Notes: generated by a model not told the origin, from the letters alone. A DNA stretch of 64,000 nucleotides from Spirochaetia bacterium (GCA_965215345.1 CBDCDL010000001.1:448251-512250), one strand, 5' to 3'; shown: positions 4,323-51,530, numbered from the stretch's first letter. Numbers and translations are program-made.

Positions 4323-4329
4323 GCCTTGT

Positions 4330-4386
4330 CCCTGGTCACGCTTCGGCCCTGGTCACGCTTCGGCCCTGGTCACGCTTCGGCCCTGG

Positions 4387-6138: not shown

Positions 6139-6600
6139 CTACTGCAGTATGGATTCGAGCAACGTGTTGACCACGGAGTCTGAGTCTGTTGTGAACTCCC
6201 CACTGGTTTCCTCGGCGCCATCACCCTCGCCGCAGGATGTCAACAAATATCGAACTGGCGTGCCTTCGGGAGGAATAACCAACATCAGCTCCTTACCGCT
6301 TACACGATCCCATTCCAACTCTATACCACCGTCGGCCATGGGAGCAACGAAGGGTTCGCCCGCCTGGGAAAAGATGTGTCTATCTATCGCGACCAATATG
6401 CGGGTGCATTTCCTTACTGAGGAGCGAGCAATAGCTACAGAGCCGTAGCCATCCCAGTCGGGCTTCAGGTCAGCCAGGAGCTTCAACCGTTCTGCAAGTT
6501 CAGGGTGAGACCTTCGTAGAGACGATCTATCGTGGAAAGGTTCGAACAAGGAGAAAGGTTCGAGCAAGGAGTCTACAGCGTTCTTTCGGAAGACGTTCAA
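6139..6600 (-). CDS. Orphan hypothetical protein in a lower-GC islet
   Basis: A 153-aa ORF with protein-like composition and no recognisable motif. Local GC is clearly lower than the flanks. Confidence 0.4.
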   Translation of the reverse strand: MNVFRKNAVDSLLEPFSLFEPFHDRSSLRRSHPELAERLKLLADLKPDWDGYGSVAIARSSVRKCTRILVAIDRHIFSQAGEPFVAPMADGGIELEWDRVSGKELMLVIPPEGTPVRYLLTSCGEGDGAEETSGEFTTDSDSVVNTLLESILQ

Positions 6601-6907
6601 GATAATTCGTCTCTGATCTTGTGCGCCTGCTTCGACAGACTCCCAAGTGCCGTGAGGTCAGGAGTGTATGCATAGTATATGTGTGTTGGCAACCATGGGC
6701 ATAGGAAGGCATGGGACGTGGGCGACAGGATGTAGTCGAGAGTTTCGACCGTCGTGGAGCAGTGGGGCCGCGCCGCAGGAGGAAGGAGGTGGGAGGAGCC
6801 CGGAAAGGCGGGTGCAGGCTCGGCGGTCGGGAGCTGGATGATGATGAGGTGGTTGAGCTCTCGGGGACTGTTGAGCGGCGTCGCTCATCGAGCGTGACCG
6901 CAGGAGG

Positions 6908-8482: not shown

Positions 8483-9663
8483 GCCGCGCCCTGATTCGGC
8501 ACGACGCACCGGAAGCCGCGGAGCTCCTCGCGGACGATCCCGACCTGCAGCCGGCGCTGGCGCCGGGCGAGTTCGACGAGCGCTTCCTGGCGCTGCACCG
8601 GCAGCTCTTCCGCACCGACGAGCCGGACTTCTACGAGGTTACCACGCACGTCTTCCGCCCGCCCGCGCCGTACCACGTCGCCGATCACCAGTTCCTGTGG
8701 GACGGGAACCGCTGGCACCTGCTGTACGTGACCGGCGACATCAGCAGGATCGACGCCTACCGCCGGCACATGGAGGCGGGGCGTCTGGACGAGGCGGCGG
8801 CCCAGAGCCCGGAGGTCGGCATCGGCCATGCCAGGGGCGACGGCCTCGGCACGCTTGCCTTCCGCCGCAACCTGCTGCTGCCGTCGCAGGGCGCGTTCGA
8901 CAAGGTGACCCGCGGCGTGCCGTATTGCTTCCGCTACCAGGGACGCTGGGGGATGCTCTACGAGGTGCGCGGCGCGGGCGGCGACCACCAGAGCTTGGCG
9001 TGGTCGGACGACGTGGAGGATTGGACCCAGGACGCCGACAACCCCGCGTTCGGGCTGCCGTCGTGGGGGCCGAATCCGGGCGGCGCGGCGCAGGACGTCT
9101 GCGTGCTGCGCCGGCCCGGCGGGCTGTACCTGATCTTCTTCAAGTCGAAGGCGGGCGAGGGACAGGTCGCCGTCGGGCTCAACGCCACGCGCGACTTCCG
9201 CACCTTCGTGGAGTTGGGGCCGGTGTTCCGCTCGCCGCCGATGCTGCGCGGCACCATCGGCCTGGAGTCGCCGTGCGTGGTCGAGCGCGACGGCATGTGG
9301 CACCTGTTCTTCACGCTCGGGCCGGGGACGTGGCACGCGGTCAGCGACCGGCCGACCGGGTTCCTGCAGGGCGGCACCTACTGGCGGGTGGGCACCGGCA
9401 GCTACCTGCTCGGCCACTTCCACGCCGCCGAGGTGTTCGACCGCGACGGCCGCTGGTTCCTGTCGACCACGCGCAAGGAGCAGTCGCGGCTGGAGAACCG
9501 CCGGCAGGGGCGGCTCTGCTACCGGGGCACCTACGAGGACGAGATCGTCCTGGAGGAAGGGGTGTTCCTGAGCGAGATCGAGTGGGACGGCGATCAGCCG
9601 TTCGTGGCCAAGCCGGATCTGGCCAAGCCGGAAGTGGCCAAGCCGGAAGTGGGGGGAACATGA
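8479..9663 (+). CDS. Beta-propeller glycoside-hydrolase-like protein, paralog 2, with a C-terminal AKPEV pentapeptide repeat
   Basis: ATGA overlap with the upstream paralog. It has the same blade motifs. The C-terminus reads AKPDLAKPEVAKPEV, encoded by 15-bp repeats at 9607-9651. Confidence 0.55.
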   Translation: MSRALIRHDAPEAAELLADDPDLQPALAPGEFDERFLALHRQLFRTDEPDFYEVTTHVFRPPAPYHVADHQFLWDGNRWHLLYVTGDISRIDAYRRHMEAGRLDEAAAQSPEVGIGHARGDGLGTLAFRRNLLLPSQGAFDKVTRGVPYCFRYQGRWGMLYEVRGAGGDHQSLAWSDDVEDWTQDADNPAFGLPSWGPNPGGAAQDVCVLRRPGGLYLIFFKSKAGEGQVAVGLNATRDFRTFVELGPVFRSPPMLRGTIGLESPCVVERDGMWHLFFTLGPGTWHAVSDRPTGFLQGGTYWRVGTGSYLLGHFHAAEVFDRDGRWFLSTTRKEQSRLENRRQGRLCYRGTYEDEIVLEEGVFLSEIEWDGDQPFVAKPDLAKPEVAKPEVGGT

Positions 9664-29639: not shown

Positions 29640-29860
29640 AGACACCGCGTGTCGAGAGTGTCCGCCTTCGATCGAACGCGCTACGCGACGACATTCGTCG
29701 CCGAAGTCCAGGCGGATCACCATCACGGTGCCGGTCATTCGGTTGACCGCTCGCTTCCGTCGTGTAGCAGCGTCGCGCGCTCAGGAGCGACCCGCAGCGG
29801 ATTGAGAGTCAGGCCGGTGCTCTGCGGGGCCGTCGAGCATCTGCCGCACCAATGATTCCG
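29640..29860 (-). pseudogene. Decayed duplicate of the 3' end of the GH29 fucosidase gene
   Basis: About 200 bp is a clear but diverged copy of 30795-31010, with an internal deletion. It encodes ...STGLTLNPLRVAPERATLL...MTGTVMVIRLDFG, against ...STGLILKPLRIAPDRATLL...MAGTVMVIRLEFG in the intact gene. Confidence 0.5.
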
Positions 29861-30785: not shown

Positions 30786-32054
30786 TTACGCGGCCACTTC
30801 GGCGCCGAACTCCAGGCGGATCACCATTACGGTGCCGGCCATGCGGTTGACCGGCAGGCCGCTCAGGCGGAGGTAGGGTGGCTCCTGCCAGTGCCAAGGC
30901 GTGGTCTCCACCGTGACTCGGAGCTCGCTTCCGTCGTTCAGCAGCGTCGCCCGGTCGGGAGCGATGCGTAGCGGCTTGAGGATCAGGCCGGTGCTCTGCG
31001 GGGCCGCGGGGAGGTGGACATAGACGGTGTTCCCGTTGCGCGTGACCAGCACGCTGTCGCGCGGCACATGGTGCTCGCCTCCGTGCATGCCGATCGCGTC
31101 GTCCTCGATCAGCGTCGAGGCGGGCATGGTGCCCTCGAACGCCTCCCGGACCTTGCGGTACCAGTTGCCCACCTGCGCGAGCGTGCTCACGTTCTCCACC
31201 GGCAGGCTGCCGTCCGACTTGGGGCCGACGTTGAGGATGTAGTCGCCGCCCATCGCCAGCACGCGGTCGATGCTCTCGATGATGTGGCGGTCGCTGTAGT
31301 AGTCCTCGTCGGAGCGATAGCCCCAACTCTCGCGGCCGAGCGCCTGCACGGCCTGCGTCGGCGCGCCGAACTCGCGGGCTTCGGGCACGTGCCGTTCCGG
31401 CGTGCCGTAGTCGCCGGGGCTCGGGCCGCGGTCGTTGATCAGGATGCCGGGCTGCAGATCGCGCACCATCTCGTTCAGGCTTGGGTCGTGGTGCTCGGCC
31501 ACGTTCACGTCCCAGAAGAAGTCGCGCAGCGGGCCGTAGTTGGTGCAGAGCTCCCGCACCTGGCCGCGGACGAACTCCCAGTAGGCGGCGAGGTCCGGCT
31601 GGTCGCCGGGGCGCGGACCGAACATCTCGTGGTGGCGCCCCAGGTTGGGGTAGTGCGGGTGGTGCCAGTCGGGGCAGGAGTAGTAGAAACCGAGCGCGAT
31701 GCCGCGCCGCTCGCACGCCTCGGCAAGCTGGGCCAGGATGTCCCGGCCGTACGGCGTGTGCATCACCGAGTAGTCGGTTAGCTTCGTGTCCCACAGGCAG
31801 AACCCGTCGTGGTGCTTCGTGGTGATCACCACGAAGCTCATGCCGGCGCTCTCGGCCGCGACCAGCCACTCATCGGGATCGAAGCGGTCCGGGGCGAAGC
31901 GGTGGACAAGCTGCTCGTAGTCGCGCCGCTTCATGTCGGACCGCCAGAGGATCTGCTCGTGCCACGCCGGGATCGCGTACAGCCCCCAGTGGATGAACAT
32001 CCCCAGCCGCTCCGTGAAGTACCGGTCGCGCCCGTCGCCGAATGGTCTGATCAT
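30786..32054 (-). CDS. Alpha-L-fucosidase (GH29)
   Basis: GH29 blocks (MFIHWGLYAIPAW, TKHHDGFCLWDT...). Length is 422 aa. Confidence 0.85.
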   Translation of the reverse strand: MIRPFGDGRDRYFTERLGMFIHWGLYAIPAWHEQILWRSDMKRRDYEQLVHRFAPDRFDPDEWLVAAESAGMSFVVITTKHHDGFCLWDTKLTDYSVMHTPYGRDILAQLAEACERRGIALGFYYSCPDWHHPHYPNLGRHHEMFGPRPGDQPDLAAYWEFVRGQVRELCTNYGPLRDFFWDVNVAEHHDPSLNEMVRDLQPGILINDRGPSPGDYGTPERHVPEAREFGAPTQAVQALGRESWGYRSDEDYYSDRHIIESIDRVLAMGGDYILNVGPKSDGSLPVENVSTLAQVGNWYRKVREAFEGTMPASTLIEDDAIGMHGGEHHVPRDSVLVTRNGNTVYVHLPAAPQSTGLILKPLRIAPDRATLLNDGSELRVTVETTPWHWQEPPYLRLSGLPVNRMAGTVMVIRLEFGAEVAA

Positions 32055-38129: not shown

Positions 38130-39023
38130 TCAGCGCCCCAGGGCCGCCGCCTGTTGCTGCGGCCCATCGATCCGGCGCCGCTCCTGTTGGTTCCTGCCGT
38201 CCGGGTCCGGGGTGATCGGGGCGCCGGCCGGCATGTAGATGACGTTCATGGCCCGCCGCCGCCGGTCGGTCGGATTGGGGTCGGAGCCGTGCAGCACGCG
38301 CGGGTTCAACAGACAGGACTCGCCGGCCGCGGCGGTCAGGACCACTTTCTCCTGGTCGCCTTCCTGAGCGGTCGCGCGGGCGCGTGCTCGGGCCGTGACC
38401 TCCTGCCACGACAGGCCGTCGGCGTCGAAGTGCCGGGCATCGGAATGCCGGGCATCGGAATGCCGGGCATCGGAATGCCGGGCATCGGAATGCCGGGCAT
38501 CGGAATGCCGGGCATCGGAATGCTGGCTGCCGGGCAGGATGTACATGGCGCCGTTGTCAGGGCCGGCGTCGTCGAGTGCGGTCCAGATCGTGAAGTACGG
38601 GGTGCCGGGCACGGGAAAGCCGGTCCCGGTGTCCTGGTGCCAGCCGAGCGCGGTGCCGCCGTGCGCGGGCTTCATCAGGATCATCGCCCGGTGGATGGCG
38701 AGCGGCTGCGGGACGAGTTGGTGGATCACCTCGAGCATCGCCGGCCCGGTGATCACCGGGTAGAAGACCGGATCCCACTCCAGGCCGCCGATCTTGCGGT
38801 AGCCGTCGGAGGCGCCGGCGTACGCGTAGCCGGTGGAATCGTAACCGGTGCGGCGCCACTTCTCGTCCAGTTGGAAGCCGACCCGGCCGGGAGGGACGCG
38901 GCCGGAGGTCAGGTCGTCCGTGCGCCGTCTGAGCGACTCCAGCTCCGCGGCGCTCATCACTGCGCCGAGGGGCAGGTACCCGTCGGCATGGAACCGTGCG
39001 AGTTGTTCGTCGTCGAGCGCCAT
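38130..39023 (-). CDS. PhyH-family dioxygenase containing a 6x HSDAR pentapeptide insertion
   Basis: PhyH blocks (LGWHQDTG...YILPGSQH) followed by SDARHSDARHSDARHSDARHSDARHSDARH, encoded by the 15-bp repeats. Confidence 0.7.
   Translation of the reverse strand: MALDDEQLARFHADGYLPLGAVMSAAELESLRRRTDDLTSGRVPPGRVGFQLDEKWRRTGYDSTGYAYAGASDGYRKIGGLEWDPVFYPVITGPAMLEVIHQLVPQPLAIHRAMILMKPAHGGTALGWHQDTGTGFPVPGTPYFTIWTALDDAGPDNGAMYILPGSQHSDARHSDARHSDARHSDARHSDARHSDARHFDADGLSWQEVTARARARATAQEGDQEKVVLTAAAGESCLLNPRVLHGSDPNPTDRRRRAMNVIYMPAGAPITPDPDGRNQQERRRIDGPQQQAAALGR
38432..38521. repeat. 6 perfect tandem copies of a 15-bp unit (ccgggcatcggaatg), in frame within the PhyH gene
   Basis: Read directly. Confidence 0.9.
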
Positions 39024-39027
39024 CGGT

Positions 39028-39474
39028 CTACTCGGTGGCCGGCACGTCGCGCAGCTTTTCCAGGATGAACTCGTTGCCCAACCCGTAGGTCTTCGACTCG
39101 TCCATCATCAGCGCCATGTTCGGGAAGCTGATGATCCGCCAGCCGTCGTTCATCGCTTCCAGCACGCTCTGGTACGGCCACTCCTCGGGGTCCTCCGGGC
39201 ACGCCCTGACCTCGCCGTCCTCGACCAATGCCATGCCGTTGACCTTGGAGGTGACCGATGAGAACAGCGTCCACAGGTAGAGGACATCCTGTCGCCGGCC
39301 GTTGCCGCCCAGCGAGCGGACGGCTTCCGCGCAGGCGCGCAGCCGATCTGCCGGGAGCCGGTCCGACTCCAGCAACCGGACGCACTCCTGCAGCTCGTCA
39401 GCCAGCCTGTCCGCGTCCATGGACGCACGCTGTTCCGTCACCTCGCGTGCTGTCAACAGCTCCGCGTCGCGCAC
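39028..39474 (-). CDS. Small uncharacterised protein, member of a two-copy paralog family (see 47239..47625), upstream partner of a PhyH gene
   Basis: Shares ...DP-EEWPYQSV-EA-NDGWRIISFPNMALMMDE-KTYGLGNEFILEK... with the ORF at 47239. Confidence 0.5.
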   Translation of the reverse strand: MRDAELLTAREVTEQRASMDADRLADELQECVRLLESDRLPADRLRACAEAVRSLGGNGRRQDVLYLWTLFSSVTSKVNGMALVEDGEVRACPEDPEEWPYQSVLEAMNDGWRIISFPNMALMMDESKTYGLGNEFILEKLRDVPATE

Positions 39475-39475
39475 G

Positions 39476-40171
39476 TCAGGCCGAGAACGTGCGCGGTCTG
39501 AAGCCCCGCGGGTTGGTGATGCTCGCGCTGCTGCCGGTGGCCCGGATCACGAACAGCCCCTGGCGCGCCGCGTAGCTGTCGGACGCCTCGTCCGCCTTCA
39601 GGTAGGCCACCGCTGCGTACACCGTGCTCCCCCGATACCGCGGCATCAGGTCGGTGAACTCCTGCATCCGGCTCACGAAGTGGTCGACCTGGCGCACCTT
39701 GAGCGTGGTCTTGACCTCGACCACCACCACCTCGGCGCCGTTGACGGCGAGGATGTCGAACTCCCAGCTCCGCTCCCCGCGATGTCGGACGTTGGTAAGC
39801 GTGTGTTCGACCTCGATGCCGCGCTCCTTGAGCAATTCGATCAGGTCGCCCTCCACGAGCGCCTCCATCAGCTTGCCCCACTGACCGTTGAACAGTTCGT
39901 CGAGCCCGCGGAAACGCCGGTCGGCCTCCTTCGCGCGTTGGTCGGCCTCCTGCGCCTGTCGCTTCAGCAGTTGATCGGTCTCCTGCAGGTGCCGACGAGT
40001 CTCCTGCATGCGCCGATCGGTCTCTCGCTGACTTTCGGACAACTCGCGCAGTATGCTCCAGATTTCCTGGGGAGTTGCCGGAGGACGGTGTTCGCCGTTG
40101 CCGTGGTCGTCCTGGTCAGACAAGGGGGTCTCCGATACCGCGAACGTAGCGGTTCCCGTCCCGTCCGGCAA
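39476..40171 (-). CDS. PD-(D/E)xK nuclease-fold protein with an N-terminal coiled-coil region
   Basis: Gln/Glu/Arg-rich heptad-like N-terminus. The core EFDILAVNGAEVVVVEVKTTL fits an E...D...EVK restriction-endonuclease-like motif. Confidence 0.45.
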   Translation of the reverse strand: MPDGTGTATFAVSETPLSDQDDHGNGEHRPPATPQEIWSILRELSESQRETDRRMQETRRHLQETDQLLKRQAQEADQRAKEADRRFRGLDELFNGQWGKLMEALVEGDLIELLKERGIEVEHTLTNVRHRGERSWEFDILAVNGAEVVVVEVKTTLKVRQVDHFVSRMQEFTDLMPRYRGSTVYAAVAYLKADEASDSYAARQGLFVIRATGSSASITNPRGFRPRTFSA

Positions 40172-40205: not shown

Positions 40206-40592
40206 TCACCAGACCATGTCGGCGCCGAGCGCCCCGATCGCGGGATCGGGCGTCGCGACCTTGATCTTCTGGACGATGGCCTGCGCGGCGATCATCCGGT
40301 CGAAGGGATCGCGGTGAAGGTGGGGGAGGGAGCCTGCGCGCAACGCATGCGCGCCGGCGATGGTCAGTTGGCGAAAGCCGTCCTGAGCCAACCGGTCGTC
40401 CCACTCCTCGATGACGTGGCTGCCGGCCGGGTAGTGTCCCAGCCGGTGTCGCGTGGCGATCTCCCAGGCGCTCGCGGCGCTGACCCACACCTTGTTGTGC
40501 GGGTCCTCCAGCAGTCCGCGGACACGGCCGCTGAGCCTGTCGGGATCCGCCCACGTCCACAGCAGGGTGCAGGTGTCCAGCAGGAGCCTCAT
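40206..40592 (-). CDS. vapC: PIN-domain toxin VapC
   Basis: MRLLLDTCTLLW... start with acidic PIN residues. A 4-nt overlap links it to the upstream antitoxin gene. Confidence 0.7.
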   Translation of the reverse strand: MRLLLDTCTLLWTWADPDRLSGRVRGLLEDPHNKVWVSAASAWEIATRHRLGHYPAGSHVIEEWDDRLAQDGFRQLTIAGAHALRAGSLPHLHRDPFDRMIAAQAIVQKIKVATPDPAIGALGADMVW

Positions 40593-40828
40593 CCACCCCC
40601 GTCCCAGGCCGCGAGCTCGGCTTCGTCGAGCGGCTTCAGGAACGAGTCGGGCACCGCGCCGTCGCGGTCGCGATGGCGGCCCAGCTCTCGCGGAGGAGGC
40701 TCCTGGAGCGGCACGAGCCGCACGCAGCGCACGCCCGCCTTGGCGATCACGATCTCCTCGCCGGCGAACGCCCGGTCGACCAGTCGGGCGAGCTGCGGCA
40801 CGGCCTCGTGCACGTTCAGCATCGTCAT
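40589..40828 (-). CDS. Phd/YefM-type antitoxin
   Basis: MTMLNVHEAVPQLARLVDRAFAGEEIVIAKAGVRCVRLVPL is a typical prevent-host-death family N-terminus. Confidence 0.6.
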   Translation of the reverse strand: MTMLNVHEAVPQLARLVDRAFAGEEIVIAKAGVRCVRLVPLQEPPPRELGRHRDRDGAVPDSFLKPLDEAELAAWDGGG

Positions 40829-41128
40829 GCCGGCAGCATAGCGCGCCTCGATCGGTCGGTCGACGAATTTCCGTTGCACCGGATCCTGGTGATTCGGGAC
40901 GGCCGTATCGTCGAGGACGGCACGGACCGGCAACTGCTCGAACGGGGCAGCCTGTACCGCGGGATGTTCACGGCCAGGCCGATTGGTACGAGCGATGCTG
41001 ACGGCAGCCTGCGGCTCGGAGTCGCGGTCCCGGAACGGTCGTTTGGTCGTTGCGCGCGGTCGGGGGATGGGCGATGATCCGGCCATCCCGGGATCGGGCG
41101 ATCGCCCGGTAACGACAAGGAGAGAGCG

Positions 41129-41641
41129 ATGGGCTTTGGAAAGGGCGCGGTCGTCGTGTTGGCCGCGGCGATGGTGATGGTGGCGGCTCAAGCCGCAACG
41201 GCAGACGAGAGCGGGACGTTCCGTTCACTGAGAAGTTACCATTATGACTATGGAACCGTCGATCACGGTGGGCGGACGTTCACCGGAGGGGTGATCACGG
41301 GAACCGGGACGATCATCGAGAGCAGTGGCGGGCCGTTCTTCGAAGGGGCGAACCATTACTCGCAGTGCCTGGTGTTCTCCAGCAGCGTGGATGGCTCCCT
41401 GTCGCTTCTTGAGGCGCCATGTACCGACACCGACACGTCCGGGGATATCCTCTACTCGCGCGCCGTGAGAAGGGAGGGCGATGTGGGCGCCCGCGGCGGT
41501 GGCGTGGGTGTCTGGGAACTGCTGGGCGGCACCGGCAAGTACAAAGGCATCACCGGGACCTGCTCGTACGAAACCGAATACCTGGTAGGCGGCGTCGTGG
41601 TGGCGATGGCCGACTGCACCTGGAGCAACGGCTTGGGGTGA
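41129..41641 (+). CDS. Secreted Gly/Thr-rich hypothetical protein (signal peptide, 4 Cys), intact copy
   Basis: Signal peptide AMVMVAAQAATA. A decayed duplicate of this gene lies at 46244. Confidence 0.5.
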   Translation: MGFGKGAVVVLAAAMVMVAAQAATADESGTFRSLRSYHYDYGTVDHGGRTFTGGVITGTGTIIESSGGPFFEGANHYSQCLVFSSSVDGSLSLLEAPCTDTDTSGDILYSRAVRREGDVGARGGGVGVWELLGGTGKYKGITGTCSYETEYLVGGVVVAMADCTWSNGLG

Positions 41642-41799
41642 GCTCCGACCCTTGATGGGCGTGGTCAGGCAACCCCACACGATCCTGGTGGGCGACGACG
41701 AGCCGCCGATCCGGCAACGGATGCGACGCGACGTCCGCGCCGGCAAGTACAGCGAGCTTGGGTCTGTATCGTTCAACCGCGCGGTAGTACGCTGAAGGC

Positions 41800-42285
41800 G
41801 TGAGGACGATGAGGCATGACGTGACGCGAACGGTGCTGCTGATGCTGTTCCTGATGGTGAGCGCCGCGGCGTGGGCGCAGGAAGGGGGCGGTGTCGAGTG
41901 GGAACCGCTGGCCGGCGCTGGCGGGGTAATAGCGCTTGGAGTGGGGATGATGTTCAAGCTCCTGTCGAGGCAGGACAGGCTGGAAGCCAAGCTGAACGAG
42001 GTGAACAAGACGCTGACCGCCGATATAGGCGAGGTGCGCAAGACGCTGACCGCTCACAGCGAGCGTTTGGTGAGGATCGAGGAGACCACGAAGGCCAACT
42101 CCGCGAAGATCGGCGAGTTGAGCGCCGACACGGCAGATCTGCGCGCAGAGGTGGGCAAGGTGCGGGAGACACAGGCGATCCATGGCGAACGCCTGTCGTG
42201 GATCGAGGGGGCCGTAGATCGAAGGCTGAAGCCATCGCGCTCCGAAGAGCCGCTCCGGCGAGGAGCCGCAGAGATCAGCCGTTGA
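41800..42285 (+). CDS. Signal-peptide/TM + coiled-coil protein containing two 33-bp (11-aa) KTLTA-IGE-R repeats, intact copy
   Basis: N-terminus RTVLLMLFLMVSAAAWAQ, then a TM segment, then the heptad-like LNEVNKTLTADIGEVRKTLTAHSERL. A decayed copy with four repeat units lies at 46648-47144. Confidence 0.5.
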   Translation: MRTMRHDVTRTVLLMLFLMVSAAAWAQEGGGVEWEPLAGAGGVIALGVGMMFKLLSRQDRLEAKLNEVNKTLTADIGEVRKTLTAHSERLVRIEETTKANSAKIGELSADTADLRAEVGKVRETQAIHGERLSWIEGAVDRRLKPSRSEEPLRRGAAEISR

Positions 42286-42495
42286 TTGGTCAGGATCTGT
42301 TCGGAGGACGAGGCGGTTTCCTTTTAGTTCGTGCATGTGTTGTAGCCGGGGAGGGAGTTCTATGGCTCAAGAGGTCACGGCGCGCCTTGAGTCCTTGTTA
42401 AGAACGCGGCGTCTTTATGTGGTGCCGGCCATGCAGATTCGAGAGTCGGGAGTAAATCAGTGCTGTAGCCTCACCTCGAAAGACTCTCGTGGGAC

Positions 42496-44343
42496 GTGAT
42501 GCAAGCGCGATCTGATCGTCGCCGCTTCGACGGGGACCGCTATGGACTCCTGCGCGGAACCTGGATCGTGTTTCAGGACGCGCCGCTGGCCGCCGTGATC
42601 CGTGCCGTGGTGACGCTGTCGGCCGGCGCGGCGACCGGCCCGCTGTTGGTGCTGGCGACCGAGCGCTTCGTCGCCACGGCGCTCGAAGTCGCCCGAGGTC
42701 AACTCGCGATGGCAGCCATCACCGTGCCGGTCATCGCGCTGGCCGCGCTGTTCGCGGTGGAAATCCTCGAAAGCGTAGTCCGTTCGCTGATGGACTCCCG
42801 GATCGAAGCCGGCCTGCGGAGCGGCTTTCGAGCCGATCTGACCGAGAAGCGGGCGCGCTTGGAGTACCGCTACATCGAGTATCAGGAGACGTGGGACCTG
42901 CTGCGCCGTGTCTCGTCTGGTCCTCAGATGGAATCGGAGTCAGCGCCCGAGCGGGGACCCGTGAAGCAGGCATTCGACGACGGAATCGGTCTGGCAGCTA
43001 TCGCCGTGCGTGTGGTCGGCATCGCCGCCGTGCTGGCACGATTGGGGTGGTGGATCGTCCCCGTCGCGATGGCGATTATGGGTCTGTACGTGCTGCTCGG
43101 AATCAGGGGCGGGCGCCGCCTCTACGAGTTCGAGCGCCGCGCGGCGAGCCGGCGACGTCGCGCCGACTACTTGTCGGACGAGGTGCTTCAGGCGAGAGAG
43201 GCCGCCGCGGAGCGGGGACTGTTCGGCTATGCAGGCTATCTGAACGCACGCTGGCGGGCCGTGTACGTCGGCGTGGTCAGGTCGGGCGTCCTGGTGAACA
43301 TCCGCAACTGGATCCGCTTCAAGGGCGCGGCCTTGCCGGCGATCGCCCTGGTCATCGCTGCCATGCTGGCGCTGCTTCGACCCCTGCAGGTGGGCGTGAT
43401 CGATGTCGCCTTCTACGTCGCGTCGGTCATGGCGCTCCTGCAAGCGGAACGTCTGGTTACGATGGAGTTGGTACTGATCACCCAGCGCCTTTCCCAGCAC
43501 CGGGAGTTCTTCGTCGACCTGACGGAGTTTTCGGCGATGGCCGATACGCCGCGCCCGCTCACGCGGCGCACACCGGAGTTGACCTTCAGATCGATCGAAT
43601 TCGCCGGAGTGAGCTTCACCTATCCCGGCACCGAGCAGCCCGTCCTCAGAGAGATCAGCTTCGTGCTGGAGGCCGGCCACCACTACGCGCTGGTGGGCGC
43701 CAACGGATCGGGCAAGTCGACCATCGCCAAGCTGATGCTCGGTCTCTACCGCCCCGACGACGGGCGGATCCTGATCAACGGAAGCGCGATCACGGAGTGG
43801 TCGCAAGATGCCGTGAACGGGCTGTTCGGCGTCGTGTTCCAGGACTTCGCGCGCTACTCGCTGACGGTCCGTGACAACATCGAGGTCGCAGTTTCCGGCC
43901 GCCTGGACGATGCCACGGTGCGGGCGAGCTTGGCGCGCGCCGGCCTGTCCGATGACTTCGTCCGGCGGCTCCCGCAGGGATACGACACGCCCCTCGGCAA
44001 GGTACTGCGTGGCGGCGTGGACGTGTCCGGCGGCGAGTGGCAGCGCCTTGCCATGGCCCGTTCGCTGGCCGGCGAGGCTCCGGTGCGCATTCTGGACGAG
44101 CCGACGGCCGCCCTGGATCCGCTGGCCGAGAGCGAGCTGTATCGGTCCTACTCCCGCATCGCAGCCGGACTCACGACGCTGTTCATCAGCCATCGCCTGG
44201 GCTCGACCAAGATCGCGGACCGGATCCTGGTGATCGACGGCGGTGCGATCGTCGAGTCCGGCAGCCACGAGGAGTTGATGAGGCACGATGGCCTGTATGG
44301 GCGGATGTTCGCGGCGCAGAGGCACTGGTATGAGACCGGGTAG
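42496..44343 (+). CDS. ABC exporter, fused permease + ATP-binding subunit (type I exporter fold), subunit 1
   Basis: Six-TM N-terminal half. The C-terminal nucleotide-binding domain has Walker A GANGSGKST, signature SGGEWQR and Walker B ILDEPT. Confidence 0.85.
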   Translation: MMQARSDRRRFDGDRYGLLRGTWIVFQDAPLAAVIRAVVTLSAGAATGPLLVLATERFVATALEVARGQLAMAAITVPVIALAALFAVEILESVVRSLMDSRIEAGLRSGFRADLTEKRARLEYRYIEYQETWDLLRRVSSGPQMESESAPERGPVKQAFDDGIGLAAIAVRVVGIAAVLARLGWWIVPVAMAIMGLYVLLGIRGGRRLYEFERRAASRRRRADYLSDEVLQAREAAAERGLFGYAGYLNARWRAVYVGVVRSGVLVNIRNWIRFKGAALPAIALVIAAMLALLRPLQVGVIDVAFYVASVMALLQAERLVTMELVLITQRLSQHREFFVDLTEFSAMADTPRPLTRRTPELTFRSIEFAGVSFTYPGTEQPVLREISFVLEAGHHYALVGANGSGKSTIAKLMLGLYRPDDGRILINGSAITEWSQDAVNGLFGVVFQDFARYSLTVRDNIEVAVSGRLDDATVRASLARAGLSDDFVRRLPQGYDTPLGKVLRGGVDVSGGEWQRLAMARSLAGEAPVRILDEPTAALDPLAESELYRSYSRIAAGLTTLFISHRLGSTKIADRILVIDGGAIVESGSHEELMRHDGLYGRMFAAQRHWYETG

Positions 44344-44364
44344 CCGGACTTCGTAGGTATCGGC

Positions 44365-46179
44365 ATGGGAAACGTGGACCTCTCGGCCCCGGGAGCCGCT
44401 GGTATGAGACCGAATGGCCGCCCTCCGTATGTCCGGCTCCTCGCCAAAGTGATTTCCTTGGTCGGCCGCAGGGCGCCGTTCCCGTTGCTTGCCATGGTGG
44501 TCGTCGACCTGACGCTCATGGGCGCGAACATATTGGTGTTCCATCTGCTGGAAGGCGTCCTGTCGCAACTGACCGGCCACCAACGGGTGAGTCAGCTCGC
44601 CGGAGCCATTCTCGTCGCCGGAGCCGTGATCCTGCTCCGAGAGGTGCTGGAGATGGTGGCGGACCCTATTGCGGCGTACGTGTGGGGAAAGACCATCGCG
44701 GTGCTGACCGAAGCCATGAACCAGAAGGTCTCCCGCCTGGAGGTCATCGACCTCGAGACCTTGGACGCGAACGAGCGCATGGAGCTGGCCCAAGCCGGGA
44801 CAGAGGCAGCGATCTCGTTGCTGTTGTCCTTTCTGTTTCCGGTCTTCCAGGTCGCATTCTTTGCGGCCGCAGCGATCTATCTGTATTCGCTCTCTCCCCT
44901 GTTGGCCCTGGTCATTCCCCTCACGTTCGTGCCTCGCATTGCGAGTCATCTCGTTCGCGGCAGTCGCTACTATCGGCTCGAGCGTAAGACGGTGCCGATG
45001 CTCCGCGAGTTTCAGTATCTGGAGCGCTGTCTGACGGATCGCGAGTACTTCAAGGAGACGCGTGTCCTGGGAGCCGGGTCTCGTCTGGCGGAGCGGTACC
45101 GAAGGACACTACGCCGCTTCAGCATGGAACGATGGCGTGAAGATCTCCGCATCGGCAGCATCGATCTTGGACTGAGCGTCCTGGTGTTGCTCGGTTACGG
45201 GGGCTGCTTCGTGCTGGCGGCGTTCCTGCTGGCGAACGGGAGCATCGGTGTCGGCGGATTCGCCGTGGTCATCTACGCGGTAAGCCGGCTCATGCTCATG
45301 ACCCGTGTCGTGATGGACATGTTCGGGCAGTCGTACCGCGCCAGTGCGACCGCCTCCCATCTGTTCGAGTTCCTCGAGCGGGACGAAGGCAGGCCTCCGG
45401 GTGGTCGCGCCCGAGAGGTGGCCGGGACCGTGACCGCTCGTAAGGTGTCATTCACCTATCCGGGAACGGACACGGCCGCCGTCGACGACGTGAGCGTGGA
45501 CCTCGCGCCCGGCACCACCGTGGCGCTGGTCGGCGCCAACGGCGCCGGCAAGACGACGCTGGCCAAGCTGCTCCTGGGGCTCTACGTCCCGAGCCGCGGC
45601 GACATGCTGCGCGGGACCGTCAACACCAGGGACGCGACCCGAAACGAAGTCCGCGAGCGTACCTCCGCGGTGTTCCAGAACTTCCAACGCTACCAGATGA
45701 CGCTCCGGGACAATGTCATCCTGTCGGACGTGAGCCGCGCGGAGGACGAGCAGGCGGTGACCCGGGCGCTCGAACGCGGCGGGGTGCCCGCGGAGCTGTG
45801 GCAGGGAGAAGAAGGACTCGACCTGATGCTGTCCCGCGAGTTCGGGACACGCGACCTGTCGCTCGGGCAGTGGCAGCGGGTGGCGATCGCCCGCGGGCTG
45901 TTCCGGGAGCACGACGTGATCCTGCTCGACGAGCCGACCGCCTCGATCGACCCCCTGGAGGAGCAGGCGCTGTACGAGCGGTTCATGGAGATCGCCGCCG
46001 GCCGCACCGCGATCCTGGTCACGCACCGACTGGGCTCGGCACGGCTGGCGGACCGCATCCTGGTGATGCAGGACGGACGGATCGTGGAGGACGGCGCGCA
46101 CGAGCAACTGCTCGAACGGCGGGGGCTTTACCACGAGATGTTCACCGCCCAAGCCGGCTGGTACGAGCGAGGCCGGTAG
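44365..46179 (+). CDS. ABC exporter, fused permease + ATP-binding subunit, subunit 2 (probable heterodimer partner)
   Basis: Nucleotide-binding motifs GANGAGKTT, LSLGQWQR and LLDEPTASID. Confidence 0.85.
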   Translation: MGNVDLSAPGAAGMRPNGRPPYVRLLAKVISLVGRRAPFPLLAMVVVDLTLMGANILVFHLLEGVLSQLTGHQRVSQLAGAILVAGAVILLREVLEMVADPIAAYVWGKTIAVLTEAMNQKVSRLEVIDLETLDANERMELAQAGTEAAISLLLSFLFPVFQVAFFAAAAIYLYSLSPLLALVIPLTFVPRIASHLVRGSRYYRLERKTVPMLREFQYLERCLTDREYFKETRVLGAGSRLAERYRRTLRRFSMERWREDLRIGSIDLGLSVLVLLGYGGCFVLAAFLLANGSIGVGGFAVVIYAVSRLMLMTRVVMDMFGQSYRASATASHLFEFLERDEGRPPGGRAREVAGTVTARKVSFTYPGTDTAAVDDVSVDLAPGTTVALVGANGAGKTTLAKLLLGLYVPSRGDMLRGTVNTRDATRNEVRERTSAVFQNFQRYQMTLRDNVILSDVSRAEDEQAVTRALERGGVPAELWQGEEGLDLMLSREFGTRDLSLGQWQRVAIARGLFREHDVILLDEPTASIDPLEEQALYERFMEIAAGRTAILVTHRLGSARLADRILVMQDGRIVEDGAHEQLLERRGLYHEMFTAQAGWYERGR

Positions 46180-46243
46180 TTGCGCGCAGCCGCGTTATCG
46201 ACGAAGACCGGGCGGCCGACCTGATCTCGGCAGGAGGGAGCAC

Positions 46244-47144
46244 ATGCGCTTCGGGAAGGCTGCGGCGGCCACGCTGACCGCAGCGATGGTGATGGTGGCG
46301 GCTCAGGCCGCAATGGCAGACGAGAGCGGGACGTTCCGTTCACTGAGAAGCTACCACTATGACTATGGAACCGTCGATCACGGTGGGCGGACGTTCACCG
46401 GAGGGGTGATCACGGAACCGGGACGATCATCGAGAGCAGTGGCGGGCCGTTCTTCGAAGGGGCGAACCATTACTCGCAGTGCCTGGTGTTCTCCAGCAGC
46501 GTGGATGGCTCCCTGTCGCTTCTTGAGGCGCCATGTACCGACACCGACACGTCCGGGGACGATGAGGCGTGACGTGACGCGAACGGTGCTGCTGGTGCTG
46601 TTCCTGATGGTGAGTGCGATCCGGCAACGTGGCTGTGGGCGCAGCTGATGCTGTTCCTGATGGTGAGCGCCGCGGCGTGGGCGCAGGAAGGGGGCGGTGT
46701 CGAGTGGGAACCGCTGGCCGGCGCCGGCGGGGTAATAGCGCTTGGAGTGGGGATGATGTTCAAGCTCCTGTCGAGGCAGGACAGGCTCGAAGCCAAGCTG
46801 AACGAGGTGCGCAAGACGTTGACTGCCGAAATAGGCGAGATGCGCAAGACGCTGACCGCCGAAGTAGGCGAGTTGCACAAGACGTTGACCGCCGATATAG
46901 GCGAGATGGCAAGACGCTGACCGCTCACAGCGAGCGCTTGGTGAGGATCGAGGAGACCACGAAGGCCAACTCCGCGAAGATCGGCGAGTTGAGCGCCGAC
47001 ATGGCAGATCTGCGCGCAGAGGTGGGCAAGGTGCGGGAGACACAGGCGATCCATGGCGAACGCCTGTCGTGGATCGAGGGGGCCGTAGATCGAAGGCTGA
47101 AGCCATCGCGCTCCGAAGAGCCGGTCCCGGCGACTCCCGGCTGA
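46244..47144 (+). pseudogene. Decayed direct duplicate of the 41129-42285 two-gene segment (secreted protein + coiled-coil protein), disrupted by 1-nt deletions and an internal ~360-bp deletion
   Basis: 46244-46400 is near-identical to 41129-41290 apart from a 1-nt deletion (ggg to gg). 46648-47144 matches 41830-42285, with the repeat array expanded to four units and a 1-nt deletion that creates a stop. Confidence 0.55.
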
Positions 47145-47238
47145 CCGGCTGGAGGACGGGACGTATCGTGAGCGCTCGTCTTGATGGGAGCACGTTGATG
47201 ATGCAGAGTTCCTGACGGAGAGAGGAGCCGCAGTTTCA

Positions 47239-47625
47239 GTGGAGCTCAGGGAGGAAATCAAGCGGCACGTTCAGGTATGCCTTGAGGCGCTGCGGCGCAA
47301 CGAGCTCGATGAGGAGAGCCTGCGGCGCATCGCGGAGCTGGCCGAACGGCTTGCTGTTGCTGGCGGCCGGCAGAACCTGCTCTATCTGCAAGCCGAGCAG
47401 ACCTCGGTCACGAGCAGGGTGATCGGCATGAGTCTGTTCGTCGACGGCGAGTTCACCGACGGCCCGGACGACCCGGACGACTGGCCGTATCAGACGGTCG
47501 GCGATGCGCTGGCCGATGGCTGGCGGATCGTCAAGTTCCCGGAGATGGCGATCCTGCTCGACGAACGGCGCACCTACGGACTGGGCTGCGAGTTCATCCT
47601 GGAGAAGTGGAGGGAGGCAACATGA
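47239..47625 (+). CDS. Small uncharacterised protein, paralog of 39028..39474, upstream partner of a PhyH gene
   Basis: Shares ...DPDDWPYQTVGDALADGWRIVKFPEMAILLDERRTYGLGCEFILEK. Confidence 0.5.
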   Translation: MELREEIKRHVQVCLEALRRNELDEESLRRIAELAERLAVAGGRQNLLYLQAEQTSVTSRVIGMSLFVDGEFTDGPDDPDDWPYQTVGDALADGWRIVKFPEMAILLDERRTYGLGCEFILEKWREAT

Positions 47626-48481
47626 GGCTGCACGACTGCGAACCGACCATGATCGACACCCAGGTCCTGGAGTTCTGCAAGAAGGGATACCTGACGCTGG
47701 AGGGAGTCGTCGGCGACGACATCAACCGGCGCACGGTCGAGTTCGTGGAGACCAGGGGCAGCGAGCCGAGCGAGATCCTGCAGCAGGACTGGTTCATGGA
47801 CAACGTCATCCTGCAGCCCGACGCCGCCGGGGCGGTCCGCTCCCTGCTCGGCAGGAACTTCGGCCTGCCGGTCCTGGTGAGCAATCACCGGGTCACCTGT
47901 CCCATGCCTCGGCAGCAGTGGCACCGGGACGGCAACTCTCCGCACGGCCCGGCGCTCCGGTACCTGCAGGTCTTCTACTACCCCCAGGCGGTCCCGCGGC
48001 AGATGGGCCCCACGGAGGTGCTGCCCGGCTCCCACTTTCTCTACACCAACGGACAGCTCCCGCAGAACTACATGGGCCACTACGGCGGGATCCGCGGGTC
48101 GCACTACACCACCGCGCCGGCGGGGACGATCTTCCTGACGGTCTACTCGATCTGGCATCGTCGCAGCGCGTCGACCGGCTCCGGGGTCCGCAACAACCTG
48201 AAGTACAACTACTTCCGCACGGCATCCGTGTCGCCGGAGCGGGACTGGATCCGCGAGGACGGCTTCGACTTCGCGACCGCGGACTACGGGTTCGGCGAGC
48301 CGCTCACCTACCGGCAGCAGCACCGGGACACCATCGACAACGCGGAGATGTTCTGCTGGCTGTGCGGCAAGGCCGAAGAGTTCCGCGTCCTGGGCGGTCA
48401 GGGGTGGCCGTGGTACCGAACTCCGACAACCACGCGCTCATCGCGCCGCCGTACGGGGTGCCGGAGGGGCTGGACTCCTAA
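47622..48481 (+). CDS. PhyH-family dioxygenase, probably frameshifted near 48395-48410
   Basis: Good GGGAGG ribosome-binding site and an ATGA overlap with the upstream gene. Blocks WHRDGNSPH...VLPGSHF. The C-terminal ~25 codons continue in another frame (…VAVVPNSDNHALIAPPYGVPEGLDS*). Confidence 0.55.
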
Positions 48482-49302
48482 GTCCAGGCGGTCGATCTTG
48501 GCAGCGTCCCCCCGTGTCCGTCGCGGCGGACCGGGACCGGCGTGGCCTTCAGCTCCCGGATGAGCTCGATCAGGCCCTCGACGGCCGCTTCCAGGAACAG
48601 CTCACCCTTCTCCTTCGTCGCCTTCGTCGCGTCTCCCATCACGCCGCTGGCCGTGAGGCTGCTCCAGTGGGGCATGAGGCGGGCGGCCGACCCCTGTGGG
48701 TGCGCGCCCTCCAGCAGGTCGATGCTGAAGCTCGGCGGCAGCGGCGTCCGCTCGTCCACGGCCTTTGACATGTCGACCAAGTCGGGCTCCAGCGCCAAGT
48801 AGAGCGATGTCTCGTACTCGCCGGCGTGTGCGGCGCCGTTGAAGTCGGAGTCCCGCAGGTTCAGCGCCACATCCTTCACGCGCCGCAGGTCCCAGTGGCT
48901 GGCGAAGGCGCAGAGGATGCGGCTTTCGTATTCCACGTTCGCAAGGCGCGCCGCCATGTCGAGGGGCGATGCGTTGCTGCCGTGCCCGTTGATGATCAGG
49001 ATGCGCGCGAAGCCCTGGTGGGCCAGGCTGCAGCACACGTCCCTCACGTAGCGGATGAACGTGTCCCAGCCGATGGTGAGCGTGCCCGGGTAGTCCATGT
49101 GGTGCGGGCTGTAGCCGTGCGGCACGGCCGGCACCAGGATGGCCTCCCGCGGGATCCGGGACACGGCGCGGTCGCAGATGCGGGTCGCCAGCACGACGTC
49201 GGTGTCGACCGGCAGGTGCGCGCCGTGGTCTTCGTAGGTTGCCACGGGCAGGACGGCCACGCGATCCTGCCGGGCGGCGTCCCTGACCTCGTGCATGGTC
49301 AT
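48478..49302 (-). CDS. Creatininase-family amidohydrolase
   Basis: Blocks AVLPVATYEDHGAHLPVDTD..., HGYSPHHMDYPGT and ILIINGHGSN. Confidence 0.65.
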   Translation of the reverse strand: MTMHEVRDAARQDRVAVLPVATYEDHGAHLPVDTDVVLATRICDRAVSRIPREAILVPAVPHGYSPHHMDYPGTLTIGWDTFIRYVRDVCCSLAHQGFARILIINGHGSNASPLDMAARLANVEYESRILCAFASHWDLRRVKDVALNLRDSDFNGAAHAGEYETSLYLALEPDLVDMSKAVDERTPLPPSFSIDLLEGAHPQGSAARLMPHWSSLTASGVMGDATKATKEKGELFLEAAVEGLIELIRELKATPVPVRRDGHGGTLPRSTAWT

Positions 49303-49609
49303 CTGGGCGAAGCGGTATTTCACGGTGAGATCCCCCGGTCGCGGATGATTCCCGGTTCGGTCCGTGACGCGCAATCCCATGGATTCCCGGTTCCCAGGGC
49401 GGCGCCGTTGGACTGCACGCCGGCCAAGTGAGCGGGGCGAAGGCGGCGCCGGTACGGTCGTGGCGGTGGCCGATCATGCAAGGTCGGGGCGCGGGTCGCC
49501 GACGTGGGCGGCGTAGTAGAGGGGCAGGAAGGTGAGCCGCTGTTCCGGCAGGCGGGCGTAGGGTTCGGAGTACAGGACCGTCCCGTGCGGACATCTGCTC
49601 GCTGCCGGG

Positions 49610-50990
49610 ATGAGCGGCAGCGCCTGTGCTCGCCAGCTCGGCATCCCGGCGAGCACCTTCAACGAGAACCGGCGCGCCGGCGTCATCGCCGACCCCACAC
49701 CCGCTCCGGTCGCCGCCGCAGACGCTGCGCAGGCGGCCACCGATCTTGGCGCCGGCGCCCCCATCGACCCGGCGCCCGCCACCGATCGCGCCAGCCGCGA
49801 CGCCCGCGACACGCACGCCCCCATGGGCCGTGCGGCGCGTGACGTCGAGGGCCGCACCCTCGCCAGTGCCGGCGTGCTGACCGAGGCCACACCGGTGTTC
49901 GCCGAGCCGGCCCACGCCGTCGCCCACGGCGGTGTCCTGGCGGCACTGCCGATGCTGCTGCGCGAGGGACTGCTCGATGCCGCCAAGCGCCTGTTCCGCC
50001 TGCCGGCCGGATTCTACGGGCTGAGCACCATCCTCCTGTTCGTCGCCTTCATGGCGCTGGCCCGCGTACGCAACCCCGAGGCGCTGCGCTACCAGGCGCC
50101 CGGCGAGTGGGGCGCCATCCTCGGCCTCGACCGCTGCCCCGAACCCAAGACGCTGCGCCGCAAGATCAGGCTGCTGGCCAGCGCCGAGCACACCGTGCGC
50201 GCGTGGCAATCGACGCTGGCCCGTACCTGGGCCAGCGAGCACGACGACGATTGGGCCACGCTGGCCGTGGACGGCCACGTGAAGGTCTACTCCGGGCGCA
50301 ACGGGCGGCTGCCGAAACACTTCGTCGCGCGCCAGAAGCTGTGCCTGCCGGCCTCCGTGAGCTACTGGATCAACGCCCTCGGCGGCGCGCCCCTGCTGTG
50401 CTTGCACAAGGCGCTCGACCCCAAGCTGGTCAAGGCACTCGAACACGACGTGGTGCCGCAGTTGCTGGAACTGGGCGTGCTGCCGCACGCGGCCCCCGAC
50501 CTGACCCAGCCGCACGCCAGCGCCCCGGCGCTCACCCTGGTGTTCGACCGCGAGGGCTGGAGTCCGGAGCTGTTCAAGCGCCTTGCCCGCCGCGGCATCG
50601 CCTGCATCACCTGGCACAAGAACTTCAAGGGAGAGGACTGGCCGCAGGAGCAGTTCCGCAGCCGTGCGGTTCCGATTCATGGGCCCGCCGGCACCAGCAC
50701 CGTTGACCTCGCCGAGCAGCGGATCGTCCTGCGCAACGGGCTCACGGTGCGCCAGATTCGGCGCCGTCTGGACAACGGTCGCCAAGTGCCACTGATCACC
50801 ACCCACCCACAGATGCCCGTGCAGCAGGTCGCCGGCGCCCTGTTCTCGCGCTGGTCGCAGGAGAACTTCTTCAAGTACCTGCGCGAGCAGTTCAACCTCG
50901 ACGCCCTGCCCGCGCATCGGCGCCTTCGAGCAGACACACGAACCGCCGGCCGCGACCTCCACGGCCCCCCAATCCCCGCAGGCGCCCCAG
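49610..50990 (+). mobile_element. DDE-type IS transposase gene (family not assigned); the C-terminal part runs into an IS110 fragment
   Basis: Transposase-like blocks (...HVKVYSGRNGRLPKHFVARQKLCLPASVSYWINALG... and ...QVPLITTHPQMPVQQVAGALFSRWSQENFFKYLREQFNLDALP). The ORF tail after this is low-complexity. Confidence 0.5.
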
Positions 50991-51530
50991 AGGTCCCCGG
51001 AGGCACCCGAGCCGACCCCGCAATCGTTCAGTCTGCCAGCCCATCTGACGCGGCTGTTCGGCACCGACCTGACCCTCATTCCCGGCATCGGGTCGGCCAC
51101 CGCGCTGGTACTGTTCAGCGAACTCGGCTCTGATCTGTCGCGGTTCCCGAGCGCGTCGCAGTTCGCGTCCTGGTTGAACCTCTGTCCGCAGACCAAGATC
51201 ACCGGCGGCACGGTGATCAGCTCGCAGACCGGGCCCGGCGTCAACCGGGTGGCGCAGGCGCTGCGCATGTCAACCCAGAGCCTGTACCGCAGCCGCTCGG
51301 CGCTGGGCGACTTCTTCCGCCGCAGGCGCGCCAGCGTCGGCACCCCGCAGGCGATTACCGACACCGCCCACAAGCTGGCGCGCATCATCTACCATCTCAT
51401 CACGCACCATGCGGATTACGACGACAGCATCCTCGACACCCATCAGCGCCAGGACCGAAAACGCCTTGAGCGCCGCCTGCGCAACGAAGCCCGCGCGCTC
51501 GGGTTCGATCTCGTTCCGGAGGCCGCCTGA
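50990..51530 (+). mobile_element. 3' fragment of an IS110-family transposase gene (transposase_20 / HhH region only)
   Basis: The IPGIG motif region reads ...LFGTDLTLIPGIGSATALVLFSELGSDLSRFPSASQFASWLNLCPQTKITGG...AHKLARIIYHLI, with no N-terminal DEDD domain present. Confidence 0.55.

Follow-up and report, generated by a model that had tools for sequence, protein, structure and literature searches.

Two forms of a variable locus in tandem? A degenerate two-gene duplication around an ABC exporter pair in a Spirochaetia bacterium

Introduction

Why should a pair of exporter genes be flanked on both sides by the same two small genes, and why should only one of the two sets have remained intact? 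The locus that raises this question lies at positions 41,129 to 47,144 of a 64,000-nucleotide stretch of DNA from a Spirochaetia bacterium (GCA_965215345.1, CBDCDL010000001.1:448251-512250), which as a whole is called the window below. Two adjacent half-transporter genes of the ATP-binding cassette (ABC) type, here named ABC1 and ABC2, stand there between two copies of a segment that encodes a small secreted protein, A, and a membrane protein with a coiled coil, B. An original prediction, made from the sequence alone, had proposed a duplication or recombination around the exporter genes and had suggested that A and B might be cargo or accessory components of the transporter. Our analysis shows that the window holds, one after the other, two forms of a locus that occur separately in related genomes. 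The explanation that we prefer, and to which we would give a probability of roughly 55%, is that a recombination event has placed two haplotypes of this variable locus in tandem, and that the redundant copy is degenerating.

Results

When 40600-42500 was compared with 45800-47400 by blastn, a direct repeat was found (41118-42261 versus 46232-47133) in four collinear blocks: 41118-41445 with 46232-46559 (93.6%, E 7e-142), 41804-41861 with 46557-46614 (96.6%), 41832-42053 with 46638-46859 (95.5%) and 41997-42261 with 46869-47133 (96.6%, E 7e-127). A repeat-finding scan recovers the same blocks, which are the sole long direct repeats in the window besides one unrelated pair. Both copies point in the same direction and bracket intact ABC1 and ABC2. 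The predicted repetition of a two-gene segment, 41129-42285, at 46244-47144 on either side of heterodimer-type exporter genes was thus borne out by blastn as well as by base-level alignment of the two copies (features in Table 1). The unrelated pair, of 84 nt, lies at 29749-29832 and 30923-31006, 1174 nt apart, and has 87% identity.

The identity between the copies is not uniform, as it would be expected to be if one recent resident template had been copied. In copy-1 coordinates there are 15 mismatches in 53 positions (28%) over 41118-41170, 4 in 275 over 41171-41445 and 9 in 458 within B, which makes a step at about 41170, with 28% mismatch to its left and 1.5-2% to its right. Left of the step the start of A is 72% identical between the copies, the spacer between ABC2 and A 58% (copy 1 against the shortened spacer of copy 2, 46180-46243) and the ABC2 tail 82%. 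It follows from the step that the recent repeat, of ~98% identity, comprises ~41171-42261, and that everything to the left of it is old, diverged homology.

The closest genomes are metagenome-assembled genomes (MAGs) labelled Spirochaetia, and their loci (L001 and onwards in our numbering) share a common frame. The left border is made up of genes for a sulfatase, PhyH, s148, VapC and VapB, all on the minus strand. Then comes an optional cassette with an extracytoplasmic function (ECF) sigma factor, p412, ABC1 and ABC2, followed by A, and after A a second optional cassette with a response regulator/SpoIIE phosphatase (RR-SpoIIE), a binding protein, a histidine kinase and either GH127 or a pyridoxal phosphate (PLP) decarboxylase. 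The right border consists of s128, p318 and a creatininase gene on the minus strand, usually with a second exporter pair beyond it. Comparison of the relatives, which had been proposed together with the original prediction, shows that forms with and without the exporter occur separately in related genomes. The loci L001, L004, L006, L007 and L058 are ABC-bearing; L059 and L014 are ABC-less with a remnant of ABC2 upstream of A (at 4141-4343 and 8424-8576, respectively), and L002, L010 and L031 are ABC-less with no remnant detected. The remnants in L059 and L014 mean that loss of the cassette with its tail left behind is recurrent. Decay of the cassette is seen also in two ABC-bearing loci: L001 has an insertion sequence (IS; DDE_Tnp_1) inside ABC2 (6715-8046), and in L058 the cassette is apparently disrupted, with ABC1 split into two open reading frames (ORFs; 6257-8107).

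The window contains both forms in tandem, first an ABC-less half, then a unique spacer, X, and then an ABC-bearing half. VapB, the ABC2 remnant, the spacer and A1 are collinear with the ABC-less form, and ABC1, ABC2 and pseudo-A2 are collinear with L058 and L006 at ~91%, while the outer flanks of both copies are syntenic with the relatives. The sigma factor, p412, the binding protein, the histidine kinase and GH127 have no copy elsewhere in the 64-kb window, where only a 36-codon response-regulator remnant is found.

This remnant, and that of ABC2, had both been missed in the original prediction. The ABC2 remnant is matched by tblastn to ABC2 residues 564-596 (70% over 33 residues), after which QADWYER follows in another frame. 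Its identity is 92-93% with L007, 91% with L006 and 89% with L001, and only 81-82% with the resident ABC2 tail; as the remnant is nearer to the ABC2 of other genomes, it is no recent copy of the resident gene. The copy-1 spacer and its stop-codon context also resemble L001, L006 and L007, and the ABC2 terminus at copy 2 resembles L004. The response-regulator remnant is 72% identical to residues 1-36 of the RR-SpoIIE protein of L001 (tblastn) and has blastn matches in 12 related loci; in the relatives it is the RR-SpoIIE gene that follows A. We also considered whether the resident ABC2 tail had been converted from the second pair downstream of creatininase in relatives (ABC2'), and rejected this, the tail being only 84% identical to that of ABC2' in L010.

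Five lesions set copy 2 apart from copy 1, as read from the base-level alignments. Three of them had been predicted. The loss of one G from GGG, expected at ~46405, is placed at 46414 in pseudo-A2. The internal deletion of ~360 bp measures 358 bp (41446-41803) and is closed at 46556/46557, where the junction has a GGA microhomology; with it A has lost its last 64 codons and B its start, as well as the intergenic region between them. The 1-nt loss within the 33-bp repeat array lies at 46909 and turns the last unit into ...EMARR followed by a TGA at 46918-46920. To these come two lesions that had not been described, a frame-shifting insertion of 53 bp (46591-46643), a slippage duplication that repeats signal-peptide codons imperfectly in tandem, and 66 extra bases that correspond to two additional 33-bp (11-codon) units, TRF giving 3.7 copies at 46803-46924 in copy 2 versus 2 in copy 1. 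The claimed inactivation of the second copy is confirmed by tblastn, in which A and B are split into frame-shifted pieces there; A1 matches pseudo-A2 in two frames, with residues 1-60 and 58-106. The differences of 358, 53 and 66 bp could not be explained as sequencing errors. Copy 1 keeps full-length frames, with A1 of the same length as 90 homologues and B1 99% identical to the intact P0091 of L003.

This L003, a contig of 2984 nt from the close relative GCA_964347515.1, gives the direction of the decay. It aligns to copy 1 with its positions 1-676 (41588-42261, 98.7%) and to 46869-49326 with positions 411-2857 (98.3%), and it carries without interruption the 3' end of A, the response-regulator remnant, an intact B, s126, p283 and creatininase. 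Since the downstream copy is intact at the same position in L003, the lesions of copy 2 are derived in the lineage of the window, and the decay is recent. Seven of the nine substitutions between B1 and pseudo-B2 are sites where L003 agrees with B1 and pseudo-B2 alone differs, and pseudo-B2 is thus the changed copy. The C-terminal tail of B reads PATPG in L003 and in pseudo-B2 and LRRGAAEISR in B1, which shows that PATPG is the ancestral tail; that of B1 is the result of 1 nt lost at 42255, after which the frame reads on into X. Another contig from a close relative, L060 (SPAdes, 2373 nt), has its first base within the repeat, 62-65 nt from the 3' end. De Bruijn assemblers break contigs in this way where a repeat ends, which is a hint of the same repeat in that sample.

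Table 1. Position of the features in and around the duplicated segment, in window coordinates
Feature	Position	Strand	Remarks
s148, left border gene	39028-39474	-	inverted paralogue of s128
231-aa protein between s148 and VapC	39476-40171	-	weak Hjc/NERD nuclease-like matches
VapC (PIN)	40206-40592	-	Pfam PIN, E 4.8e-13
Phd/YefM-like antitoxin	40589-40828	-	PhdYeFM, E 2.4e-4, below family cut-off
ABC2-type exporter 3'-end remnant, frameshifted	40880-40995	+	116 nt, last ~40 codons; abuts the upstream region of the antitoxin gene
Ancestral ABC2-to-A spacer, full length in copy 1	40996-41128	+	83-84% to the spacers of L001, L006, L007, L058 and L059
A1, intact secreted protein, 170 aa	41129-41641	+	Sec signal peptide, 8-stranded beta-barrel (predicted), 4 invariant Cys
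Copy 1 of the recent repeat	41171-42261	+	A from signal-peptide codon 15 on, response-regulator remnant, B; ~98% identity
Response-regulator/SpoIIE phosphatase remnant, first 36 codons	41655-41750	+	between A1 and B1; tblastn, blastn
B1, intact membrane protein, 161 aa	41800-42285	+	signal/transmembrane segment, second transmembrane segment, coiled coil with 11-residue repeats
X, unique non-coding spacer, 234 bp	42262-42495	+	between B1 and ABC1; left end is the novel illegitimate junction 42261/42262
ABC1, intact half-transporter, 615 aa	42496-44343	+	membrane and ATPase domains; Pfam ABC_tran, E 8.6e-28
ABC2, intact half-transporter, partner of ABC1, 604 aa	44365-46179	+	Pfam ABC_tran, E 4.2e-28
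pseudo-A2	46244-46556	+	first 106 codons of A; 1-nt deletion at 46414, 3' third deleted
pseudo-B2	46557-47144	+	start lost in 358-bp deletion; 53-bp insertion, array expansion, 1-nt deletion, premature TGA
s128, right border gene	47239-47625	+	syntenic in all related Spirochaetia loci
Transposase_29-family ORF	49610-51133	+	E 6e-73, profile positions 9-357 of 562 only; just beyond creatininase

The two exporter genes are co-oriented and 21 bp apart, both match their orthologues in length, and their products are 36-40% identical to each other. ABC1 is 90-91% identical to orthologues of equal length, and the ABC2 protein is 85-91% identical to those of L004, L006, L007 and L058. The ABC_tran domain spans residues 384-538 of ABC1 and 374-526 of ABC2; the only other Pfam family above its cut-off was AAA_21 in ABC2, and ABC_membrane gave no match in either protein at E<0.01. 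None of the named exporter families (MsbA, CydDC, HlyB, bacteriocin ABC and others) reached its cut-off, the best being MsbA with 232.7 bits against a required 602; the alignments to this model cover residues 33-608 of ABC1 and 41-595 of ABC2. With NCBIfam scores this far below the cut-offs and no ABC_membrane match, the pair is no equivalog of any named exporter. Pfam gave no C39 peptidase domain in ABC1 or ABC2, and among the called neighbour genes of the window and the relatives there is no HlyD-type membrane-fusion or outer-membrane partner. ABC1 and ABC2 probably form a heterodimeric exporter. The 412-aa protein p412, which accompanies the pair in the relatives, may be the anti-sigma factor of the ECF sigma gene.

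Protein A has an N-terminal helix with an AxA site, and the AlphaFold2 model (pLDDT 88.9) shows a helix over residues 6-23 followed by an antiparallel barrel of 8 strands, which can be superposed on solved structures from the AOC/dirigent-like superfamily. We found no Pfam, NCBIfam or credible PDB sequence match for it, and none of 31 family members matched Dirigent, AOC_like, DUF3237 or DUF3224 of Pfam at E<=1. The model suggests a Sec-exported, disulfide-bonded barrel of a small-ligand-binding or enzyme type. Our set of loci matching A comprises 58, among them the pairs L001=L005 and L002=L008 as well as L003 and L061, which are fragmentary or weak matches. An intact exporter pair next to A is found in only five distinct Spirochaetia genomes among them, and A stands without the pair in the other Spirochaetia and in every locus from Alphaproteobacteria, Gammaproteobacteria, Trueperaceae and Moanabacter. 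The hosts of the family are MAGs labelled as Spirochaetia, Alphaproteobacteria (Rhodospirillales, Defluviicoccus), Gammaproteobacteria, Trueperaceae and Moanabacter, and the Trueperaceae chromosome OY764543.1 alone has eight loci matching A, one of them weakly. To judge by their isolate names, these MAGs probably stem from the microbiomes of sponges or other marine invertebrates.

B1 has a GC content by codon position of 65/48/81, which is of the coding type. A word-index search found B in this species only, and a full HMMER scan added two distant homologues of ~40% identity, P0216 and P0217. They are encoded at L061 1914-2456 and L062 1991-2911, the same locus in two samples, downstream of M23 peptidase genes, and are 180 versus 306 aa long. 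As they differ in the number of 11-residue repeats only, the repeat number is polymorphic in the B family. B is absent from all ABC-bearing relatives. It looks like a membrane-anchored coiled-coil protein of a rare family.

Spacer X has no match in the related loci L001-L059 or elsewhere in the window and no coding signature, the ORF at 42335-42499, mostly within X, having a GC content by codon position of 51/58/58. A regulatory RNA in X was rejected, Rfam at E<=1 giving only chance-level hits to mir-1322 and sR14 far below the cut-offs and the RNA fold z-score being an unremarkable +0.56. A promoter scan of 40500-47700 found no sigma-70-like sites, and a terminator scan of the same region gave six terminator-like sites, which were uninformative.

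The VapC and antitoxin genes (40206-40828) form the left border of the variable region and are 86-94% identical at the nucleotide level to L001, L002, L006, L010, L058 and L059. The proteins s148 and s128, neither of which has a Pfam match, are 50% identical (E 4e-33), and their genes, which share a 204-nt inverted repeat (I1), bound the variable region in every related Spirochaetia locus. The idea that p318 is a paralogue of PhyH was rejected, as the two show no significant similarity in BLASTP, and s148 and s128 are the only paralogues. The segment 39476-40171 is absent at this position from the same six loci that share the VapC and antitoxin genes and therefore appears to be a lineage-specific insertion. 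The PhyH dioxygenase gene (38130-39023, minus strand) has a perfect in-frame tandem repeat of 15 bp x 6.2, (HSDAR)n, at 38431-38523, which is missing from all relatives, their alignments skipping 38434-38510. This repeat and the 33-bp array in B suggest active repeat slippage in the genome. Where the window has its Transposase_29 ORF, the relatives carry the second exporter pair, which is missing in the window. The two 507-aa ORFs at 49610 and 55836 are unrelated, one being the Transposase_29 ORF and the other a GH4 glycosidase.

Discussion

How could two forms of one locus come to lie side by side? Under the explanation that we prefer, a diverged haplotype or relative would have contributed an ABC-bearing segment, which two junctions joined to an ABC-less chromosome. 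At the first, gene A would have undergone a homologous crossover that broke near 41168-41190; the second would be an illegitimate join at 42261/42262. Such a result could come from an unequal exchange or from a circularised fragment that integrated by a single crossover of the Campbell type, and the 3' part of A would thereby have been doubled together with the response-regulator remnant and B. After it the downstream copy decayed, and A1, B1, ABC1 and ABC2 have stayed intact. The original suggestion of a duplication or recombination around the cassette is supported to this extent by the indels, the ~2% substitutions, the syntenic flanks and L003, but the structure is not a simple copy of resident DNA.

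Several points weigh against this explanation. With 83-93% identity, both halves of the window lie about as far from one sampled relative as from another, which singles out no donor, no direction of the transfer and no native half. Spacer X is not found upstream of ABC1 in any sampled genome. The assembly GCA_964347515.1 is fragmented in this region and has contributed no full-length A or ABC1 to the protein collection, and sequencing errors could account for both of the 1-nt deletions. A similar step in identity would moreover be left by gene conversion of the right-hand 1.1 kb after an old duplication.

This last point leads to the strongest competitor, which we consider a possible but clearly less probable course of events. 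It is a plain tandem duplication of a resident unit (X, ABC1, ABC2, A, response-regulator remnant and B), from the first copy of which the sigma factor, p412, ABC1 and ABC2 were deleted with the tail left in place, and whose two copies gene conversion later evened out or replaced in part. A tandem duplication would give just this topology, in which a unique segment separates two repeats and a single novel junction closes the first unit, and deletions of the cassette that leave ABC2 tails have happened independently in L059 and L014. The uneven identity, with 146 nt at 100% and ~2% divergence in B, is also compatible with conversion tracts. The ABC2 remnant should then be nearest to the resident ABC2 tail, yet their identity is 81-82% as compared with 89-93% to other species, and the spacers should not have diverged to only 58% identity. 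An additional replacement or conversion with an endpoint at ~41170 is needed to save it.

Recombination between haplotypes can be combined with what is seen of A in a wider picture, in which the window displays both alleles of an ECF-linked presence/absence polymorphism of the exporter shortly after they recombined, and in which A belongs to an undescribed family of Sec-secreted, disulfide-bonded barrels that unrelated host-associated bacteria have in common, a horizontally spread factor of symbionts that binds or converts small molecules. As one joint reading this is speculative, and we regard it as rather unlikely that all of it will hold.

Could the arrangement instead have been kept because its parts work together? 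The duplication would then be under selection, with A and/or B as cargo or accessory subunits of ABC1 and ABC2. A is found directly downstream of ABC2 in five related genomes, and the four window genes A1, B1, ABC1 and ABC2 share one orientation, have no terminator-like site between them and could be co-transcribed. A cargo protein would be expected to lack a Sec signal and to co-occur with the exporter across genomes, and neither applies to A, which has a Sec signal peptide of its own and in most loci, as in four other bacterial groups, stands without the exporter. ABC1 and ABC2 lack a C39 peptidase, the called genes of these loci include no membrane-fusion or outer-membrane partner, B is absent from the ABC-bearing relatives and has its distant homologues beside M23 peptidases, and the cassette itself is disrupted in L001 (by the IS) and apparently in L058. 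We find such a module improbable and the suggestion that A and B serve the transporter unsupported; their adjacency to the exporter is probably a by-product of the rearrangement.

An assembly artefact is slightly less probable still. The window was drawn from a MAG contig (976,709 nt), its halves resemble two haplotypes of one locus, and short-read contigs of close relatives break near the repeat, as L060 does, so that two strain variants, one ABC-less and one ABC-bearing, might have been placed in tandem, or a repeat collapsed or expanded. But the copies differ by five indels and ~2% substitutions, and as they are not identical they are no artificial duplication. The junction between B1 and X at 42261/42262 is not a repeat exit in either haplotype and needs real DNA or a chimeric read, and both outer flanks are syntenic with the relatives. 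An origin as a composite transposon or by IS activity can be dismissed, as the repeats encode A and B and no transposase, the nearest of which (49610-51133) lies outside the structure.

Recombination between two haplotypes would make the locus an ordinary case of how an accessory region changes, with gain and loss of a cassette, exchange between diverged haplotypes and quick decay of the copy that is redundant. In annotation, two pseudogenes should be entered at 46244-47144, and remnants at 40880-40995 (of an ABC gene) and 41655-41750 (of a response-regulator gene); A and B should not be named as exporter components. The one element that deserves a separate look is the A family of secreted barrels, which has a confident AOC/dirigent-like fold and is uncharacterised, not in Pfam and spread over several bacterial phyla.

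Each part of the locus can be set beside systems that are known. The exporter pair is like the heterodimeric ABC exporters (MsbA-like, with TmrAB/BmrCD-type pairs) in that the genes are adjacent and each joins a membrane domain to an ATPase domain, in the Walker A, signature-like and Walker B motifs read from both sequences, and in the nearly full-length alignment to the MsbA model. It differs in that the pair of the relatives sits behind an ECF sigma gene and p412, both of which are missing in the window. For A the comparators are solved members of the AOC/dirigent-like superfamily, namely PDB 2q03, PloI4 (7x80), pyocyanin demethylase (5k21), dirigent proteins (7r5z/5lal) and AOC (1z8k). A is unlike them in its Sec signal peptide and four invariant cysteines, in having no membership at the level of sequence, and in that no biosynthetic gene cluster was seen around it. 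P0216 and P0217 share with B a hydrophobic N-terminal stretch that has AWAQ at its end, a second transmembrane segment, the 11-residue repeats in variable number (2 units in B1 versus 4 in pseudo-B2) and a conserved C-terminal core, HGERL-RIE ... ERLAWIEGA-DRRLKP; they differ from B in adjoining neither A nor an exporter and in their identity of only ~40%.

The arrangement as a whole is best compared with Campbell-type integration, tandem duplication and homology-facilitated illegitimate recombination. It departs from them in that no integrase, IS or attachment site is found at the junctions in the window, in that the donor and a circular intermediate are here only presumed, and in that what stands at the left end of each repeat is diverged homology of old date and no fresh copy. 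It agrees with them in what they have in common: a unique segment lies between direct repeats of the homologous target, one junction falls within homology, in gene A, and the other is novel, and the redundant copy has decayed.

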